From positions 8,512 to 72,511 of the forward strand of contig JAKAHV010000005.1 of the NCBI GenBank assembly GCA_021825295.1: a DNA stretch of 64,000 nt, given 5' to 3'. The translations under genes and the position numbers were made by a program. Origin of the DNA: Nitrospirota bacterium (GTDB lineage: Bacteria > Nitrospirota > Thermodesulfovibrionia > Thermodesulfovibrionales > JdFR-88). Positions 2,488 through 45,632 of the stretch are shown in pieces (position 1 is the first letter of the stretch; the number at the start of each line of letters is the position of its first letter). The notes beneath the pieces are model-generated. The model saw only the letters and a list, made by a program, of their open reading frames with translations, made no database searches and had not been told where the DNA came from.

Positions 2488-3390
2488 CTAAGGAAGGAGT
2501 GTCCGGTCCGCCGTTTTTTTCAGGTGCTCGACGAAGAGCTGTGAAATCAGGGGCATGGTCATTTTTTTGTGGGTAACGATATAGAACCGCTGTTGCATCC
2601 GAAACCCCTTTATCTTCACCTCTTTGAGGGCCCCTTTTTCAAGCTCCTCCGACACGCAGACGCGCGGCAGCACCCCGGCCCCCAGGCCCGCCTTCATCGC
2701 CTCGATCAGGGAGTGGTTTGAGCTGAAGGACGCAACCACGCGCAGTCTGCCCGGCGGTATCCCCTTGCCCTGGAGATAACCCTCTATCGTCTTTCTGGTG
2801 CAGGAGCCCTCCTCCCTCAGGACGAGCGGGACTTTGACAAGCTCGCCGGGGCTTATGGAATTTTCCGGCATTACGGCGCCGGAGCAGGCGAGTATCAGCT
2901 CCTCCTCGGCCAGCGGCGTATAGTTCAGGGATTTGCGTTTCGTCCCCGCTCCGACCACGCCCAGGGACAATTCGTGCTCCATGATCATGTTGATTATCGT
3001 CCTCGACTGCCCGATCGCCAGTTTGAAAAAAACGCCGGGATAGAGCGCATTAAAGCTGGCGGCCGCCCGCGGGACAAGATAAGTGCCCGGGGTGTCGCTG
3101 GCTCCAAGCAGAAGCTCACCGCCCGGCACCGCTTTGCGCTGTCTTATATCCGATTTTATGGCTTCCAGCTTCTCAATGATCTCGATGGCCCTCGGGTAAA
3201 GCACATTGGCCTCTCTTGTGGGCTCGATGCTTCTGCCCAGACGGTCAAACAGTCTGGAGTCCAGGGTCTCCTCCAGGGTCTTGACGTGGTCGCTTATGGT
3301 GGGCTGGCTCAAAAGGAGGTCCTGCGAGGCCTTCGAGAAGCTCCGGTTTTTGTAAACCGAACAAAAGACCTTAAGCTGGTGAATGTCCAT
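2488..3390 (-). CDS. LysR-family transcriptional regulator
   Basis: MDIHQLKVFCSVYKNRSFSKASQDLLLSQPTISDHVKTLEE is a classic LTTR wHTH followed by a substrate-binding domain. I prefer the internal ATG at 3390 over the track start at 3444, because the extra 18 codons lie over a repeat motif. Confidence 0.85.
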   Translation of the reverse strand: MDIHQLKVFCSVYKNRSFSKASQDLLLSQPTISDHVKTLEETLDSRLFDRLGRSIEPTREANVLYPRAIEIIEKLEAIKSDIRQRKAVPGGELLLGASDTPGTYLVPRAAASFNALYPGVFFKLAIGQSRTIINMIMEHELSLGVVGAGTKRKSLNYTPLAEEELILACSGAVMPENSISPGELVKVPLVLREEGSCTRKTIEGYLQGKGIPPGRLRVVASFSSNHSLIEAMKAGLGAGVLPRVCVSEELEKGALKEVKIKGFRMQQRFYIVTHKKMTMPLISQLFVEHLKKTADRTLLP

Positions 3391-12379: not shown

Positions 12380-14317
12380 ATGGACCTCCGCGTCAGGGGC
12401 GGGCAAAAACGCGAAATACCCGTAAAGGAAGGGCAGAGCATCCTTGCGGCCCTCAAGGCGGCGGATATCTATCTTACGGCCTCCTGCGGCGGGAAGGGCA
12501 CCTGCGGCAAGTGCAGGGTAAAAATCCTGGACGGCCCCGTGGAGATAACCGGATTTACGAAACTCACCCGGCAGGAGCGCGATTTCGGCATCGCCCTTGC
12601 CTGCCAGAGCTTCCCCAAAGGCGATGTCAGCATAGAGATACCGGAGACTTCGAGAATCGCCGTGGGGGAGAAGATCGCTGTCTCCCGCGCTGAGAACCTG
12701 CTCGGGCTGGTCTCCGAAATGGGCCAGGAGATAGCCCCGGCCGTAAAGACGGCCGGGCTGGAACTGGTCCCGCCGGCCATTGGCGACAATCTGAGCGACC
12801 TTGAACGCCTGAAAAACGGGCTTCAAACGGCCGGGATAAGCGGCATGGATTTTCCGCATGATTTCGCGGCCGGGATGGGCAAGGCGTTCAGAGAGGCCGA
12901 CTGGAAGGCGGATCTGCATTATTATCTTATTGATGGTCAAGGCGGGCTTCCGTCCGGGCAAGGCGGGGCCGCGTGCTCCGCGGTCGCCATCTATCCTTCC
13001 CGGGACAAGGCAAACGGCCGCTACGGCGCAGCCGTGGACATCGGCACGACAACGGTAGTCGTTTATCTTGTGGACCTCTCGAACGGGAAGCTCATCGATG
13101 CGGGGTCCACATACAATTCACAGATCCGCTACGGGGACGACGTCATTACCAGGATTGTGCACGCCACGGAGAGGGGCGGGCTGAAGGACCTCAGGCAAGG
13201 CGTGCTTGAGGACATAAACGGGCTCATAGGCGCGGTATCGCAGAGGCACGCGATAAACGCAAGGGCGATCGAGATGGCCGTGATAAGCGGCAATACCACA
13301 ATGAGCCACCTCTTCTGGGGCCTGGACCCCGCCTCGATAAGGGAGGAGCCCTATGTCCCCGGCGTGAGCTATTTCCCGGTGTGGAAGGGCGGCGATTCGG
13401 GCCTTACGATGAACCCCTGCGGGGCGGTCTACACGATGCCCTGCATGGCCAGCTACGTGGGGGGCGACATCGTATCGGGCGTGCTGGCCTCCGGCATGAC
13501 AAGGAAGAAGGAGGCCGCCCTTTTCATGGACATCGGGACCAACGGCGAGGTGGCCGTGGGCAATAACGAGTGGCTGATAACCGCGGCCTGCTCGGCCGGC
13601 CCCTGCTTCGAGGGTAGCGGGATAAGGCACGGAATGAGGGCGACCGAGGGGGCGATAGAATCCGTCAGGATAACGCCCGGCATGGAAGTCGAGGCCGGCG
13701 TCATAGGCAACCACTCCCCGGTTTACCCGAGGGGCATATGCGGCTCCGGCATGATAGACGCGATCTCGGAGATGTTCATGCGGGGTGTCATCGACAGGAA
13801 GGGGATTTATCACGGACAGGAGGGGGCTTTGGCGAAGAGGCTCCGTTCGGGGGAGGATGGGATGGAATTCGTGATAGCCTCCGGGCCCGCCGGGGAGATC
13901 GCGCTCACACAGGCGGACATCGAGAACATACTCCGGGCCAAGGCGGCCATCTATGCCGGCGTCTCCACGCTAGTAAAGGAGGTCGGTCTCTCGCTGGCAG
14001 ACATAGAGAAGGTGTACATCGCGGGCGGGTTCGGCAATTACCTGAATGTGGAGAGGGCAATAATGCTGGGGATGCTTCCGGACATCCCCAGGGAAAAGTT
14101 CATCTTTCTGGGGAATACCTCCATAGCTGGAGCCTATCTTGGCCTCGTCTCTGAGGGGCTAAGGCGGGAGGCCGAACAGATCGCCTCCCGGATGACCTAC
14201 ATGGAGCTTTCAGTCTCGCCCGGCTTCATGAGCGAGTACATGTCCGCGCTCTTTCTGCCCCATACCGACTCAACCCAGTTCCCCACGGTGGAAAAACTGC
14301 TTAAGGGTTTGCAATAG
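12380..14317 (+). CDS. 2Fe-2S ferredoxin fused to ASKHA ATPase domain (RACo-like corrinoid reductive activase family, DUF4445)
   Basis: Plant-type ferredoxin cysteines ([14 protein letters not shown]...LACQS), followed by a long ASKHA-type domain (DIGTTTVV..., DIGTNGE...). Confidence 0.7.
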
Positions 14318-14361
14318 CGAGAGGGGCTTTTTTACCCGCCGCCCCACTGCTCAGAAGGCTG

Positions 14362-14649
14362 CTATTTGCCCCCGAGAATTGCGTCTTTTGCGGCCTTGGC
14401 GACCCTGAATTTTACGACCTTCTTCGCCGGTATCTTGATCGTCTCGCCGGTCCGGGGGTTCCTTCCCGTGCGGGCCTTGCGCTTCACCAGGACGATCTTG
14501 CCGATGCCCGGCAGCGTGAAGGAATTCTTGGCCTCCTTGTAAGCAAGGGCCGCGATCTCATCGAGGATCTTCGCCGCCTGCACCTTCTTGATCTCCGCCT
14601 TCTTCGACAGATGCTCCGCGATCTGGGACTTGGTCATCGCCTTTGCCAT
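14362..14649 (-). CDS. HU/IHF-family DNA-binding protein
   Basis: 95 aa. GIGKIVLVKRKARTGRNPRTGETIKIPAKKVVKFR is the HU beta-arm signature. Confidence 0.9.
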   Translation of the reverse strand: MAKAMTKSQIAEHLSKKAEIKKVQAAKILDEIAALAYKEAKNSFTLPGIGKIVLVKRKARTGRNPRTGETIKIPAKKVVKFRVAKAAKDAILGGK

Positions 14650-14749
14650 AAAAACCCGCCTCCTTTAATAATTTTTGTAAAAAGACTGCAGATAGTATAA
14701 AGGATTGAAAAAAAAATGGATAGGGATATTGGGACGGAAAATAGCGGCA

Positions 14750-14956
14750 GGGCCTGCGTCAGATTTGTGGGGCAAGGCGGGGCATCTGCCAGCTCCTTCC
14801 GTTCAGCGCGCGGTTCCGGGCGTAGGTCCCGCCGCGGCGGGATTGCCGCCAAGGGCGAATATCAAGCCATTGTCAAGATGCGGTCCGCCGGTATCCGTCC
14901 GCTCTTCGCTTCTCAGGAACAGGCAGATGCCAGCCCCACAAATCTGACGCAGGCCC
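14750..14956. mobile_element. 207-bp non-autonomous (MITE-like) element, copy A1
   Basis: Perfect 23-bp terminal inverted repeat: gggcctgcgtcagatttgtgggg at 14750-14772 and its reverse complement at 14934-14956. It is flanked by the direct 9-bp repeat atagcggca at 14741-14749 and 14957-14965. No ORF is credible inside it. Confidence 0.75.
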
Positions 14957-14999
14957 ATAGCGGCATCCGAAATTGATTACTTCCGCGATATCGGTTATC

Positions 15000-15890
15000 A
15001 TGAAAGCTCAGGCCATGAACGCGGTGGAAAAAACAGAAATACCTGGCGTGCCGGCGCCCAGGCGCGGCAAGGTCCGGGATGTATACGACCTTGGCGACAA
15101 GCTTCTCATAGTCGCCACGGACAGGGTGAGCGCCTTTGACGTGATCCTGCCGGACGCGATCCCGGAGAAGGGCAAGATACTGACGCAGATATCGCTCTTC
15201 TGGTTCCGGCAGATGGCGGACATAATCGAAAACCACGTCATATCGGCTGAAGTCTCCGACTTCCCTCCGCCGTTTGACTCGTACGGGGAACTGCTTGCGG
15301 GCAGGAGCATCCTGGCAAAAAAGGCGGACGTCTTCCCCGTCGAATGCATAGTGAGGGGCTACCTCTCCGGCAGCGGCTGGAAGTCTTACAGGGAAACGGG
15401 CTCCGTCTGCGGCATAGAGCTGCCGGCCGGCCTCAGGGAATCCTCCCGGCTGCCCCGGCCGATTTTTACGCCCAGCACAAAGGCCGCGGAGGGGCACGAC
15501 GAAAACATCTCATTTGACCAATGCGTGGAGACGGCCGGCAGGCGGGAGGCCGGAATGCTCAGGGACTATTCCATAAAGATATACGAAAGGGCCCGTGACA
15601 TAGCACTGAAAAAGGGCATCATAATAGCCGACACGAAGATGGAATTCGGGATGCTTGACGGCAGGATGATGCTCATAGACGAGCTGCTGACGCCTGATTC
15701 ATCCAGGTTCTGGTCCGTGGAGGGCTACCGCGAGGGGGCGGGCCAGGACAGCTTCGACAAGCAGATAATAAGGGACGCGCTTATCGCAATGGGCTGGGAC
15801 ATGCGGCCTCCGGCCCCGAAACTCCGGGAAGAGGTCCTGTCCAAGGCGACCGCCAGGTACAAAGAAATACTGAACATACTCACCTCCTGA
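15000..15890 (+). CDS. purC: phosphoribosylaminoimidazole-succinocarboxamide (SAICAR) synthase
   Basis: GKVRDVYDLGDKLLIVATDRVSAFDVILP and ADTKMEFG motifs. The start is ambiguous among TTG 14973, ATG 15000 and ATG 15015. Confidence 0.88.
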   Translation: MKAQAMNAVEKTEIPGVPAPRRGKVRDVYDLGDKLLIVATDRVSAFDVILPDAIPEKGKILTQISLFWFRQMADIIENHVISAEVSDFPPPFDSYGELLAGRSILAKKADVFPVECIVRGYLSGSGWKSYRETGSVCGIELPAGLRESSRLPRPIFTPSTKAAEGHDENISFDQCVETAGRREAGMLRDYSIKIYERARDIALKKGIIIADTKMEFGMLDGRMMLIDELLTPDSSRFWSVEGYREGAGQDSFDKQIIRDALIAMGWDMRPPAPKLREEVLSKATARYKEILNILTS

Positions 15891-27978: not shown

Positions 27979-28160
27979 CAGCCGCTACTCTGACACCGCT
28001 TTTCGGGCATGCACTTTGGGCAACCCAGCCCCCGGCCGTCTAAAAAGCCGTTTTCTCCCCTCCCCCGCACTGGCAGATATGCCGGAACCCCGGCCCCTGC
28101 TTCTCCCGAAGTTATTATGCAAAACCAAACGACAGGAATTCAAGGGGTGAATGGGGAGCG

Positions 28161-28194
28161 GGCAGATGCCAGCCCCGCAAATCTGACCAGGCCC
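28161..28194. repeat. solo end fragment of the family A element (copy A3)
   Basis: ggcagatgccagccccgcaaatctgaccaggccc matches the right end of copy A1 (14922-14956) with 3 mismatches. I could not find a matching left end. Confidence 0.5.
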
Positions 28195-29961: not shown

Positions 29962-30130
29962 GTCCGTCTTATCCGCCCGGCCCTTTCGTTCGGTCGCGCG
30001 GTTCCGGGCGTGTACAAACGGCTTTATTCAGGCGTCTTCCAGGGCGAATGGCGAAAGCTTGGCAAGATGCGGCGCGCCGTGATCCGTCCGCTTGCTCGCT
30101 CTCTCAAGGTCAGGAGCGGATATCCCTCCC
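29962..30130. repeat. core-only relative of the family A element (copy B1)
   Basis: cctttcgttcggtcgcgcggttccgggcgt...cagggcgaatggcgaaagcttggcaagatgcgg...atccgtccgct aligns with the interior of A1 (14791-14915). It lacks the outer 23-bp TIR. Confidence 0.55.
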
Positions 30131-34299: not shown

Positions 34300-34911
34300 T
34301 TACGCCGCTATGCCGATGATTACCAGCGGGACAGCGGGAACGCCGCGCCCCTGCCTTATAACATTGTAAATCTCACCTTCATAATAGGCGACGCCGGAAC
34401 TCATTTGACTTTGAAGGGATTTCATAGGGAGGATTTCAATGCCCACGTCAATGAAATCGCTGACATAGAAGGCCAGATGTTTGACAAACAAGTCATAGGC
34501 CACAAAAGAATACTTGCCGAACTGGACTTCAACCGCCACTCTGTCCTTTACGAAATCGGTTTGATTATAACTAAAAATCGGCGATTCGCCCGCCGCTTCA
34601 ATTTCCTTCTTTTGCTCTTCGGGCGGCATCGTCAGGGTTTTGCGAATCAATTTTTCACTTTTGGTAACCCAATAGCTGACCCTGCTTTCATGCCAGTTTT
34701 TGGCTTTTAAGAGACTGTCAAAATTTTTGTTTAAATCTATGGGGCTGCAGAGAACTTTTCCTCTCATGGTCTTTTCTTTTGATATTTTTGTCCTGCATTT
34801 TTCCGCATCAACGGATTCGATAACATTTTGTATTTCTTTCCAAAGGTCCGGCTTATGGACAAGCAGGAATTCAAGGCCGTTGAGATGGGAGTAAGTTTCG
34901 GCTATTTTCAT
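34300..34911 (-). CDS. type II restriction endonuclease, BglII/BamHI-fold family
   Basis: 203 aa. PDLWKEIQNVI near the N-terminus and the catalytic-core-like DRVAVEVQFGKYSFVAYDLF resemble my recollection of BglII (PQLWKEIE, TLVEVQFSNYPF). AT-rich codon usage. The start overlaps the methyltransferase stop. Confidence 0.7.
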   Translation of the reverse strand: MKIAETYSHLNGLEFLLVHKPDLWKEIQNVIESVDAEKCRTKISKEKTMRGKVLCSPIDLNKNFDSLLKAKNWHESRVSYWVTKSEKLIRKTLTMPPEEQKKEIEAAGESPIFSYNQTDFVKDRVAVEVQFGKYSFVAYDLFVKHLAFYVSDFIDVGIEILPMKSLQSQMSSGVAYYEGEIYNVIRQGRGVPAVPLVIIGIAA

Positions 34912-35858
34912 TGGCCAGGATATTTCCGTTTCTTTTCTTTAATCAACAGGGGTTGATCGGAATTGCCCGCTTTTACCCAAGGGGCAACCGTCAGGCTGTT
35001 GCCTGCTTTCCTGGGATCATACACGGGACGGTTCATGGGACGTGTTCTTAATATCCCGGCTAATTCTTTTTCTATTCTTTGTCCTGCAAGTCTGATATAT
35101 TGCGGAAGAATTTCCGCGCCGGCTCCCCGGCGATTATGACGGATCGCTGAAATTATTGATGTGCCAGTGCCGAGGAAAGGATCGAAGACCCAGTCGTCTT
35201 CACAAGTCATTGAAAGAACGAGTCTTTCTATAAGTTCAACGGGAAATTGGCACGGATGGTCCGTTTTTTCCACATGATTACTCTTAACATTGGGAATTAT
35301 CCATAAATCTCCAGGGTTTTTGCCAAGCGGATTGCAGGAATATTTACCGGCTTTCGGACCTTTAAAATATTTTTTGCCTGGATATTTCTGAGGAACTCTG
35401 ACAGGATCCAGGTTAAAAACATAATTATCCGATTTGGTAAACCAGATTATGGTTTCATAACGCCCTGAAAATCTGCGGCTGCAATGGAGGCCGTGCTCGA
35501 AATGCCATATTATTCTATTTCGCATTTTTAAACCAAGACTGGTAAATATCGGGTAAAGAACGGTATCTAAAGGAATAATGCTGCCGTTATCAACATAATT
35601 GCCGACCTGCCAGCAAATACTGCCGCGGGGGCTAAGACTCCTGGCGCACTCGCGGATTACAGCAGCCTGCTGTTCAAGATAATTTCCAAGCTTGAGCCTT
35701 TTTTCGTACTCTTTCCCGATATTGTACGGCGGTGAAGTAACAATAAGCTGCAGCGACTCGTCCGGGATTGCCGATAAGAGTTCCAGGCAATCTCCCTGAT
35801 AAATGATTATGCGCTCGGAACGTGAAAATTTTTCCGCTATGGTCCATTTATTAAACAC
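34908..35858 (-). CDS. DNA methyltransferase, beta-class, SPPY motif (predicted N4-cytosine or N6-adenine)
   Basis: Motif IV IVTSPPYNIGKEY precedes motif I DPFLGTGTS, which is the beta-class order. SPPY is more typical of m4C enzymes. Confidence 0.85.
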   Translation of the reverse strand: MFNKWTIAEKFSRSERIIIYQGDCLELLSAIPDESLQLIVTSPPYNIGKEYEKRLKLGNYLEQQAAVIRECARSLSPRGSICWQVGNYVDNGSIIPLDTVLYPIFTSLGLKMRNRIIWHFEHGLHCSRRFSGRYETIIWFTKSDNYVFNLDPVRVPQKYPGKKYFKGPKAGKYSCNPLGKNPGDLWIIPNVKSNHVEKTDHPCQFPVELIERLVLSMTCEDDWVFDPFLGTGTSIISAIRHNRRGAGAEILPQYIRLAGQRIEKELAGILRTRPMNRPVYDPRKAGNSLTVAPWVKAGNSDQPLLIKEKKRKYPGQ

Positions 35859-35914: not shown

Positions 35915-36036
35915 TTGTCATCCCCGCAAGCGAAGCGCGTCGGGAATCCTTCTTAAGAAAGATTCCGGGCAAGCCGGAATGACAAACCCAAAATTCAAAA
36001 CAGATACCCTGCAGAGCTTGCCGCAGGGTGATTCAT
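35915..36036. repeat. hairpin repeats (family D, copy D2)
   Basis: Imperfect inverted repeat: ttgtcatccccgcaagcgaagcgcgtcgggaatc ... gattccgggcaagccggaatgacaa (35915-35985). It is followed by gataccctgcagagcttgccgcagggtgattcat (36003-36036), which is near-identical to 19646-19677. Confidence 0.55.
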
Positions 36037-36096: not shown

Positions 36097-36352
36097 GGGC
36101 CCGGTCAGATTTGTGGGGCCCGTATCTGTCAGTATCCGGAGAGAAGCGTATCTGCCCGCTCCAGGTAGAAGCGAAGAGCGGACGGATACCGGCGGGCCGC
36201 ATCCTGACAATGGCTTGATATGGGGGCTTGATATTTGCCCTTGGCGGCAATTTAAGCAGAGACGTTTGCATACGCCCGGAAGGAAAAACGCGCGCCAAAC
36301 GGTGGTGAGCAGGCAGATGCGCCGCCTTGCCCCGCAAATCTGACGCAGGCCC
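36097..36352. mobile_element. MITE-like element, family A, copy A2 (inverted relative to A1, about 256 bp)
   Basis: The ends are gggcccggtcagatttgtgggg and ccccgcaaatctgacgcaggccc. The reverse complement of the interior aligns with A1 (for example atatcaagccattgtcaggatgcggcccgccggtatccgtccgctcttcgcttc). I saw no target duplication. Confidence 0.7.
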
Positions 36353-36368: not shown

Positions 36369-36397
36369 TTGACACCTTTTTTGTTTTTAGGTTAATT
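36369..36397 (+). promoter_or_regulatory. candidate sigma-70 promoter (TTGACA-17 nt-TTAATT) for the 36405 ORF
   Basis: TTGACA at 36369-36374 and TTAATT at 36392-36397. The predicted start site falls on or next to the ATG at 36405, so the transcript may be leaderless. Confidence 0.35.
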
Positions 36398-36404
36398 TCA
36401 AAGA

Positions 36405-36653
36405 ATGGATATTACAACCAAGCTCGCCCTGGTCCTCGGGCTTTTTTTCTTTACCGTCCTTTTGAACCTGCCCTTCGGCTACCTTAGGGCGAAGGTGAAA
36501 AAATTCTCCTTCCACTGGTTTCTCTATATACATCTGCCCATTCCGCTTATCTTTCTTGGCAGGAGGCTGTCGCAGCTTAGCTGGCATTACATCCCCCTGT
36601 TTGTGGCCGCGGCCCTTATAGGCCAGTTTTCGGGCGGCGGTCTCGTCTTCTGA
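36405..36653 (+). CDS. small hypothetical membrane protein
   Basis: 82 aa with three hydrophobic segments. Directly upstream of the two dehydrogenase genes. Confidence 0.45.
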   Translation: MDITTKLALVLGLFFFTVLLNLPFGYLRAKVKKFSFHWFLYIHLPIPLIFLGRRLSQLSWHYIPLFVAAALIGQFSGGGLVF

Positions 36654-45340: not shown

Positions 45341-45468
45341 GGACATCTGCCCGGTCCTTTCGTTCGGCCGCGCGGTTCCGGACGTATACAAACGGCCTTA
45401 TTTAGGCGTCTTTCAGGGCGAATGGCGAAAGATTGGCAGGATGCGTCAGGAACCCCGCAGATATCGCC
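45341..45468. repeat. deleted core-only relative of the family A element (copy B2)
   Basis: ggacatctgcccggtcctttcgttcggccgcgcggttccggacgta...cagggcgaatggcgaaagattggcaggatgcg aligns with B1 and with the A1 interior. The right part is deleted. Confidence 0.5.
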
Positions 45469-45632
45469 TTTCACTGGAATATCATCGAGAGCCTGCAAAT
45501 CAAACGGAGGCGCTACCAAAACCGGAAGGGCCCATTTTTTTGGTTTAATCTATGTTAATCTATGAGAAGAAGGCAAAAAAGGGAGGGAAAACCCCTTTTG
45601 ATTTGTCTTTTTGAAGGAGGAACATTTCCGCA

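Follow-up and report, generated by a model that had tools for sequence, protein, structure and literature searches.

Here, we describe a 207-bp non-coding insertion between hup and purC in the genome of an uncultured Nitrospirota bacterium, analysed within a 64-kb stretch of DNA (64,000 nucleotides, referred to throughout as the window). We are confident that this insertion (copy 1) is a MITE of the ISKra4 family. Taken as a whole, the account developed below, in which an ISKra4-family MITE was mobilised in trans and inserted in a promoter-directed manner upstream of the purC -35 box, is very likely correct.

The element and its setting

Copy 1 lies in the spacer between two divergent genes, with the following features:

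14362..14649, minus strand: hup, gene for an HU-type DNA-binding protein, 95 aa (PF00216)
14741..14749, no strand: left 9-bp target-site duplication (TSD) ATAGCGGCA, abutting the left TIR; the two copies of the duplication are 100% identical
14750..14956, plus strand: MITE copy 1, 207 bp, intact, non-coding
14750..14773, plus strand: left TIR GGGCCTGCGTCAGATTTGTGGGGC, IRR type, 24 nt, 100%
14933..14956, plus strand: right TIR GCCCCACAAATCTGACGCAGGCCC, 24 nt, with a terminal C
14957..14965, no strand: right 9-bp TSD ATAGCGGCA, abutting the right end of the element
15015..15890, plus strand: purC, SAICAR synthetase (PF01259), start probable

The arms of copy 1 (14750-14773 and 14933-14956) are 24 nt long, 100% complementary and 159 nt apart. 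The original prediction of a 207-bp element between hup and purC agrees with these coordinates and with the Pfam matches of both flanking genes, and its 9-bp TSD is present directly against both element ends; its perfect TIR is indeed perfectly complementary, but measures 24 nt and not 23 bp. Allowing up to three mismatches, the 24-mer is expected 0.00 times in the window (100 dinucleotide shuffles), and the chance of an exact 9-bp match at both fixed junctions of copy 1 is about 4e-6. The subterminal ~48 nt are also inverted repeats (81% over 48 nt), so that one long hairpin can be folded from either strand, with a predicted energy of -126 to -128 kcal/mol and z of about -7 to -8. No promoter-like or terminator-like sites were found inside copy 1, and tblastn detected no similarity between it and ISKra4-family transposase or orfA. 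These are the characters of a MITE: copy 1 is small and non-coding, is bounded by TIRs and flanked by a TSD, occurs in multiple copies, and has ends in common with autonomous ISs. An 86-aa open reading frame (14716-14976) that runs through the whole of copy 1 is called in public annotations (cluster P0121, two contigs); a search of 5.8e9 proteins returned no homologue other than itself, and it is almost certainly a spurious annotation.

For purC, the ATG at 15015 appears more likely to be the start than the TTG at 14973, because it gives a protein of 291 aa, the length found in most homologues. Taxon labels of the nearest purC homologues read Nitrospiraceae, Nitrospirota or Thermodesulfovibrionales. 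In relatives whose purC is 88% and 85% identical, the RACo-HU-purC synteny and both conserved flanks of the spacer are preserved, and the MITE is absent. The insertion adds 216 bp to the hup-purC spacer of the window and spares the 100 bp that precede hup as well as the conserved purC box.

All contigs that encode an identical HU protein (from two ENA samples and one NCBI MAG) carry the identical element, and no exact empty site was found among them or among the purC relatives. The spacer centres of the 85-88% relatives consist of 95-145 bp of unrelated sequence, and therefore no exact empty site is visible there. A 95% purC variant (P0017) begins inside purC, hence has no upstream DNA, and a relative with 82% purC has a different synteny. 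The search for an empty site put forward as a check on the original prediction thus gave relatives without the element but no allele with a single ATAGCGGCA, the spacers being too diverged. The spacer centres of relatives L029 (1776-2000) and L032 (1728-2000) are mutually unrelated, and that of L029 contains a GCCCCCG...CGGGGGC hairpin. Insertion or sequence turnover seems to have occurred repeatedly in the hup-purC spacer.

Other copies in the window

Four further members of the family were found in the window:

36097..36352, minus strand: MITE copy 2, 256 bp, oriented opposite to copy 1 (nhmmer E 4e-62)
29965..30123, plus strand: decayed relic, core kept, TIRs nearly unrecognisable, intergenic (nhmmer E 8e-42)
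45342..45513, plus strand: decayed relic, core at 45342-45464 (E 4e-25), degraded right TIR at about 45490-45513
28156..28194, plus strand: solo right-end fragment GGCAGATGCCAGCCCCGCAAATCTGAC-CAGGCCC, 90% over 41 nt (E 4e-5)

The relics (29965-30123, 45342-45464 and 28156-28194) were detected with an nhmmer profile built from the window copies. Copy 2 has a mean column identity of about 81% with copy 1, with several indels; the TIR search matched its 36329-36352 end, decay has affected its left TIR, and its ends show no recognisable TSD. A response-regulator gene and an htpX-like gene (labelled htpX by translation) flank the relic at 45342..45513. In total, the family in the window comprises two TIR-bearing copies and three relics, all intergenic, at about one per 13 kb, so that the copy count proposed with the original prediction comes out as multi-copy already within 64 kb. 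The 160-bp MITE interior is present at four separate intergenic sites that have no flanking sequence in common. Because the copies differ in decay, the family is old in this lineage and copy 1 is young; "recent", as the insertion was originally described, is reasonable for copy 1 but not for the family, given the decayed relics.

Copy 2 also borders a low-GC island (34300-35858; 0.45 vs about 0.58) with genes for a BglII-like restriction endonuclease (PF09195) and an N6/N4 DNA methylase (PF01555), probably a type II restriction-modification system gained by horizontal transfer. On its other side, the island is flanked by an archaeal-type AdoMet synthetase gene (PF01941, 32920-34140). Between the island and copy 2, a palindromic pair, gtcatccccgcaagcgaagcgcgtcgggaatcc ... 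gattccgggcaagccggaatgac (35918-35990), occurs once in the window; a motif resembling it, ggattcccgccttcgcgggaatgac, is found inside the MITE of locus L002 (4440-4462), and the palindrome may represent another small repeat family. No tRNA genes were found in the window.

Partner insertion sequences

By tblastn, the window contains no ISKra4-family transposase, in agreement for this family with the original statement that no transposase is encoded there. The right-end pattern of the MITE gave two matches in a set with one genome per species (the source species not among them), both in Nitrospirota/Thermodesulfovibrionales MAGs, and was found in 23 metagenome contigs. In 10 of these 23 metagenome loci, an ISKra4-family transposase gene stops ~28 nt before the same terminus. 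The end of copy 1 is identical over 26 of 26 nt to the right ends (IRR) of ISKra4-family elements L012 and L018, and agrees in its terminal 12 nt with both ends of L008, L017, L022 and L023. These last four loci contain complete elements of 1796-1819 bp (full-length elements overall are ~1.78-1.82 kb); the left end of the L012 element runs off its contig. Candidates for the autonomous partner that had been expected elsewhere are thus the ~1.8-kb elements in metagenomes with the same ends and an ISKra4-family transposase.

Full-length ISs carry orfA (121-132 aa, DUF6788) and a transposase gene (~430-445 aa). The transposases of L008 and L023 score 285.5 and 287.8 bits against the NCBIfam model NF033572 (ISKra4 family transposase, cut-off 205), with E about 1e-85. 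Partner transposases also match Pfam UPF0236, and their second-best model, NF033529 (ISLre2), scores 90-95 bits, under its cut-off of 200. The orfA gene lies just upstream of the transposase gene or slightly overlaps it (L008 158-556, L012 1332-1697, L023 2340-2720, L049 1088-1459), and its DUF6788 (PF20586) matches come from scans of L008 and L023 and from precomputed results for L049 and L050. An IS256 parent, considered on account of the TIR and an 8-9-bp TSD, was rejected, as the transposases match ISKra4 and no IS256 model is among the matches; IS256 (p-MULT 1) falls within the same Mutator-like superfamily as ISKra4.

The partner transposases belong to a clade that is very abundant in environmental metagenomes, with at least 8000 protein clusters; all but one of the 8000 candidates scored had E <=1e-40. 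Members are mostly on contigs one IS long, and some are named ISKra4 family transposase in Aminicenantes MAGs. They are only 25-29% identical to the transposases of annotated plasmid ISKra4 copies, which are therefore too distant for a useful TIR comparison.

The ends of the full-length ISs are IRL GGGCCTGCGTCATGAAA.GGG and IRR GGGCCTGCGTCAGATTTGTGGG. The window MITE has an IRR-type sequence at each end and hence did not arise from an IS by simple internal deletion. Its interior has no detectable relation to any full-length IS recovered, and its core was not found in the other loci. Other short elements have the same ends: L001, a locus from the set with one genome per species, contains one of 105 bp with an unrelated interior and a perfect 9-bp TSD, and L015 and L028 each contain a 204-bp MITE, with unrelated interiors and perfect 9-bp TSDs that differ in sequence. 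Truncated elements in L007, L009 and L016 retain only the C-terminal end of the transposase gene.

Among full-length ISs on long contigs, perfect 9-bp TSDs were found for L038 (GCGGTTGAA), L044 (ACCGTAAAA) and L049 (TTGCGCGTG), so that 9-bp direct repeats (DRs) occur in copy 1, L001, L015, L028, L038, L044 and L049. No matching TSDs were found for the full-length elements on short contigs (L008, L017, L022, L023) or for two on longer contigs, L046 (5/9) and L047 (0/9). For these six, we infer either chimeric assembly of a multi-copy repeat or rearrangement. Directly beside the IRR of L023 starts a 327-aa open reading frame, IS110-like by its predicted sequence (24-1029), and the start of a Y2_Tnp fragment (2737-3057) in L046 overlaps the final bases of the element. 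Such arrangements suggest nesting or a use of these ends as targets by other elements, and may explain the missing TSDs of L023 and L046.

Spacing to promoters

According to Guerillot et al. (2014, PMC3942029), the inverted repeats (IRs) of p-MULT elements measure 18-39 bp and have a terminal C, and their DRs are 8 or 9 bp long. For TnGBS, ISLre2 and part of the ISKra4 group, insertions are reported to fall 13-17 bp ahead of sigma-A -35 boxes, most often at 16, and both orientations occur where the two IRs are nearly identical; promoter targeting is linked there to a signature in the transposase sequence between domains N1 and N2 (PMC3942029). Throughout this analysis, promoter calls are consensus matches. 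Promoter-like sites with the same spacing were found beside both window copies and four full-length ISs:

14973..15001, plus strand: predicted sigma-70-like box of purC, TTGATT-17-TATCAT (9/12), its -35 starting 16 nt past the right end of copy 1 (14956)
36369..36374, plus strand: perfect -35 hexamer TTGACA, 16 nt past the end of copy 2 (36352), upstream of the open reading frame 36405-36653
L044, IRL junction, offset 16 nt: TTGACG-17-TATAAT
L046, IRL junction, offset 16 nt: TTGACA-18-TATCAT
L047, IRL junction, offset 16 nt: TTGAAT-17-TATAAT
L038, IRL junction, offset 16 nt: TAGCCA-18-TATAAT

The -10 box beside copy 2 is weak (TAATTT or TTAATT). The offset of 16 is found in four of the five full-length relatives with a readable left flank, and in these four (L038, L044, L046 and L047) the promoter points towards a gene that is read away from the IS. 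Among 30 element-genome junctions, seven promoter-like sites lie within 50 nt, five of them at exactly 16 (copy 1, L038, L044, L046 and L047); as background, 0.22% of window positions have a promoter-like site 13-17 nt away. No offset-16 promoter was found at L049, at the L001, L015 and L028 MITEs or at the window relics. The IRR junctions of the 23 metagenome matches likewise gave no promoter signal, which is on the IRL side of the ISs on longer contigs. Because the promoter sequence varies by locus, and because the TSD lies between the IR and the -35 box, the promoters belong to the target and not to the element. Copies 1 and 2 meet their promoters with opposite ends, as expected from the identity of the two ends of the element. 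On this evidence from sequence, the position of copy 1 probably reflects promoter-directed integration.

One could accept the MITE and its family and hold that the 16-nt spacing in the window is coincidental, intergenic insertions being tolerated and those elsewhere purged. Targeting by this MITE itself is the least secure part of the account, as this genome offers only two intact copies, one of them beside a weak -10; the relics and the L001, L015 and L028 MITEs are not at this distance from a promoter, and selection alone would concentrate surviving insertions in spacers. However, intergenic survival does not predict single-nucleotide precision, and the expected distance (13-17 bp, peak 16) had been set beforehand by the literature. 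The proportion of nearby sites that fall at exactly 16 (5/7), and the differences between the adjacent promoters, which hence are not element sequence, also speak against coincidence, and we consider it unlikely.

The predicted purC box is conserved in the hup-purC spacers of the MITE-less relatives L029 and L032, and because it sits intact 16 nt past the right end of the element, the purC core promoter is judged untouched. Copy 1 therefore probably neither supplies nor destroys this promoter, contrary to the original suggestion that it could do either. What copy 1 has displaced is the sequence formerly upstream of purC position -51, for example an A/T-rich tract as in relative L029. If the predicted -10 boxes (14996-15015 region) are used, the purC leader would be only ~6-7 nt long, with no Shine-Dalgarno; likewise, with the predicted -10 in the 36393-36405 region, the open reading frame at 36405 would be essentially leaderless.

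Proposed mechanism and other origins

From the anatomy of the element, the relationship of its ends, the 9-bp duplications and the 16-nt offset, we propose the following sequence of events. An ISKra4-family DDE transposase (Mutator-like, p-MULT 4), encoded outside the window, would mobilise the MITE in trans by binding its two GGGCCTGCGTCA...GTGGGG ends and then excising or copying it. The complex would be directed to a position ~16 bp upstream of a sigma-A -35 box, here that of purC, through some form of promoter recognition, and integration via a 9-bp staggered cut would produce the ATAGCGGCA duplication. The MITE would thereby land in the divergent hup-purC spacer, leaving both genes and the purC core promoter unbroken. 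Having identical IRR-type ends, it could insert with either end facing the promoter, which copies 1 and 2 appear to have done. A transposase-mediated insertion, as originally predicted, is supported by the TIR, the TSD, the multiple copies and the ISs with the same ends.

Copy 1 could instead be what is left of a full-length IS that inserted at this site and later lost its interior, without ever having moved in the short form, and elements truncated to the C-terminal end of the transposase gene (L007, L009 and L016) are known in metagenomes. Against this, the same 160-bp interior at four window sites indicates that it was the short form that spread, two IRR-type ends would not result from a simple internal deletion, and no transposase remnant is detectable. 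We regard this origin as very unlikely.

The very stable predicted hairpin (-126 kcal/mol, z about -7) and its location upstream of a purine-biosynthesis gene, a class that often bears riboswitches, would also suit a structured cis-regulatory RNA or a protein-binding palindrome serving purC or hup (a riboswitch-like leader, or a terminator or insulator), with the flanking repeat incidental. However, no Rfam match was obtained at E up to 10 over 14000-15600, nor at gathering thresholds across the window, and the conserved purC box is downstream of the element, which is therefore not in the purC leader. The MITE is absent from relatives, its copies adjoin unrelated genes, divergent genes need no terminator between them, and a hairpin is what a palindromic MITE bounded by TIRs would form. 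A regulatory RNA or binding site is accordingly an extremely improbable reading. A coincidental inverted repeat flanked by an equally coincidental direct repeat, for which nothing speaks beyond a G+C-rich background, has a negligible probability given that shuffles predict zero matches and that the family is found in many genomes, with transposase genes.

Comparison with known systems

Read as an ISKra4-family MITE, the window element resembles the ISKra4 group (p-MULT 4, PMC3942029) in its terminal C, in an IR within 18-39 bp and in its 9-bp duplication. It also shares the position 16 nt upstream of a sigma-A-type -35 box (predicted here), the use of both orientations with like IRs, and partner transposases that pass the NCBIfam ISKra4 equivalog cut-off. 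It differs from that group in being 207 bp long and without a transposase; both of its ends are IRR-type, and its interior shows no relation to the ISs recovered. The partner ISs differ too, as a divergent environmental clade that always has a DUF6788 orfA. A limited full-text literature search found no papers describing ISKra4-family MITEs.

The TnGBS ICEs and ISLre2 (p-MULT 3) are similar in their oriented integration 15-17 bp upstream of sigma-A promoters and in their Mutator-like DDE superfamily, but are autonomous and known mostly from Firmicutes, with reports from Fusobacterium and Synergistetes strains as well (PMC3942029). Pack-MULEs and other non-autonomous plant MULEs are Mutator-superfamily derivatives with 8-9-bp TSDs that prefer the 5' ends of genes (PMC3942029). 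Like the window MITE, they are non-autonomous derivatives of this superfamily; unlike it, they are eukaryotic and much larger, they often contain gene fragments, and a fixed distance from a -35 box is not known for them.

Classical MITEs (Correia/NEMIS in Neisseria, and those derived from IS630 or IS5) are likewise small, non-coding, multi-copy and intergenic, with a TIR, a TSD and a long hairpin. Correia elements create TA duplications and contain promoters and IHF sites of their own. The window family duplicates 9 bp, has no internal promoter-like site and appears to be aimed at promoters by the transposase.

Biological significance

The spacer between hup and purC, like at least four others in the window, contains DNA derived from transposons and not regulatory RNA. 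A small non-coding element appears to follow the target rule of TnGBS, ISLre2 and ISKra4, 16 bp upstream of the -35 box, which would imply that the ends, together with a transposase acting in trans, suffice for targeting. The two-orientation behaviour of this symmetric-ended MITE fits the published idea that IR asymmetry dictates orientation. In addition, MITE junctions mark probable promoters, which are otherwise hard to map in this uncultured phylum.

More tentatively, and as a doubtful extension of these results, the uncultured Nitrospirota may have a lineage-specific MITE family whose integration, directed by RNA polymerase or by promoters, is inherited from the Mutator-like ISKra4 transposases, and which has thereby rewired the regulation of many genes. 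If this is true, and if the density seen in the window holds genome-wide, the DNA just upstream of -35 boxes (UP elements, activator and repressor sites) would have been systematically replaced. The regulation of many genes, purC included, would have been rewired with core promoters left intact, and the family would provide natural support for IR asymmetry as the determinant of insertion orientation.
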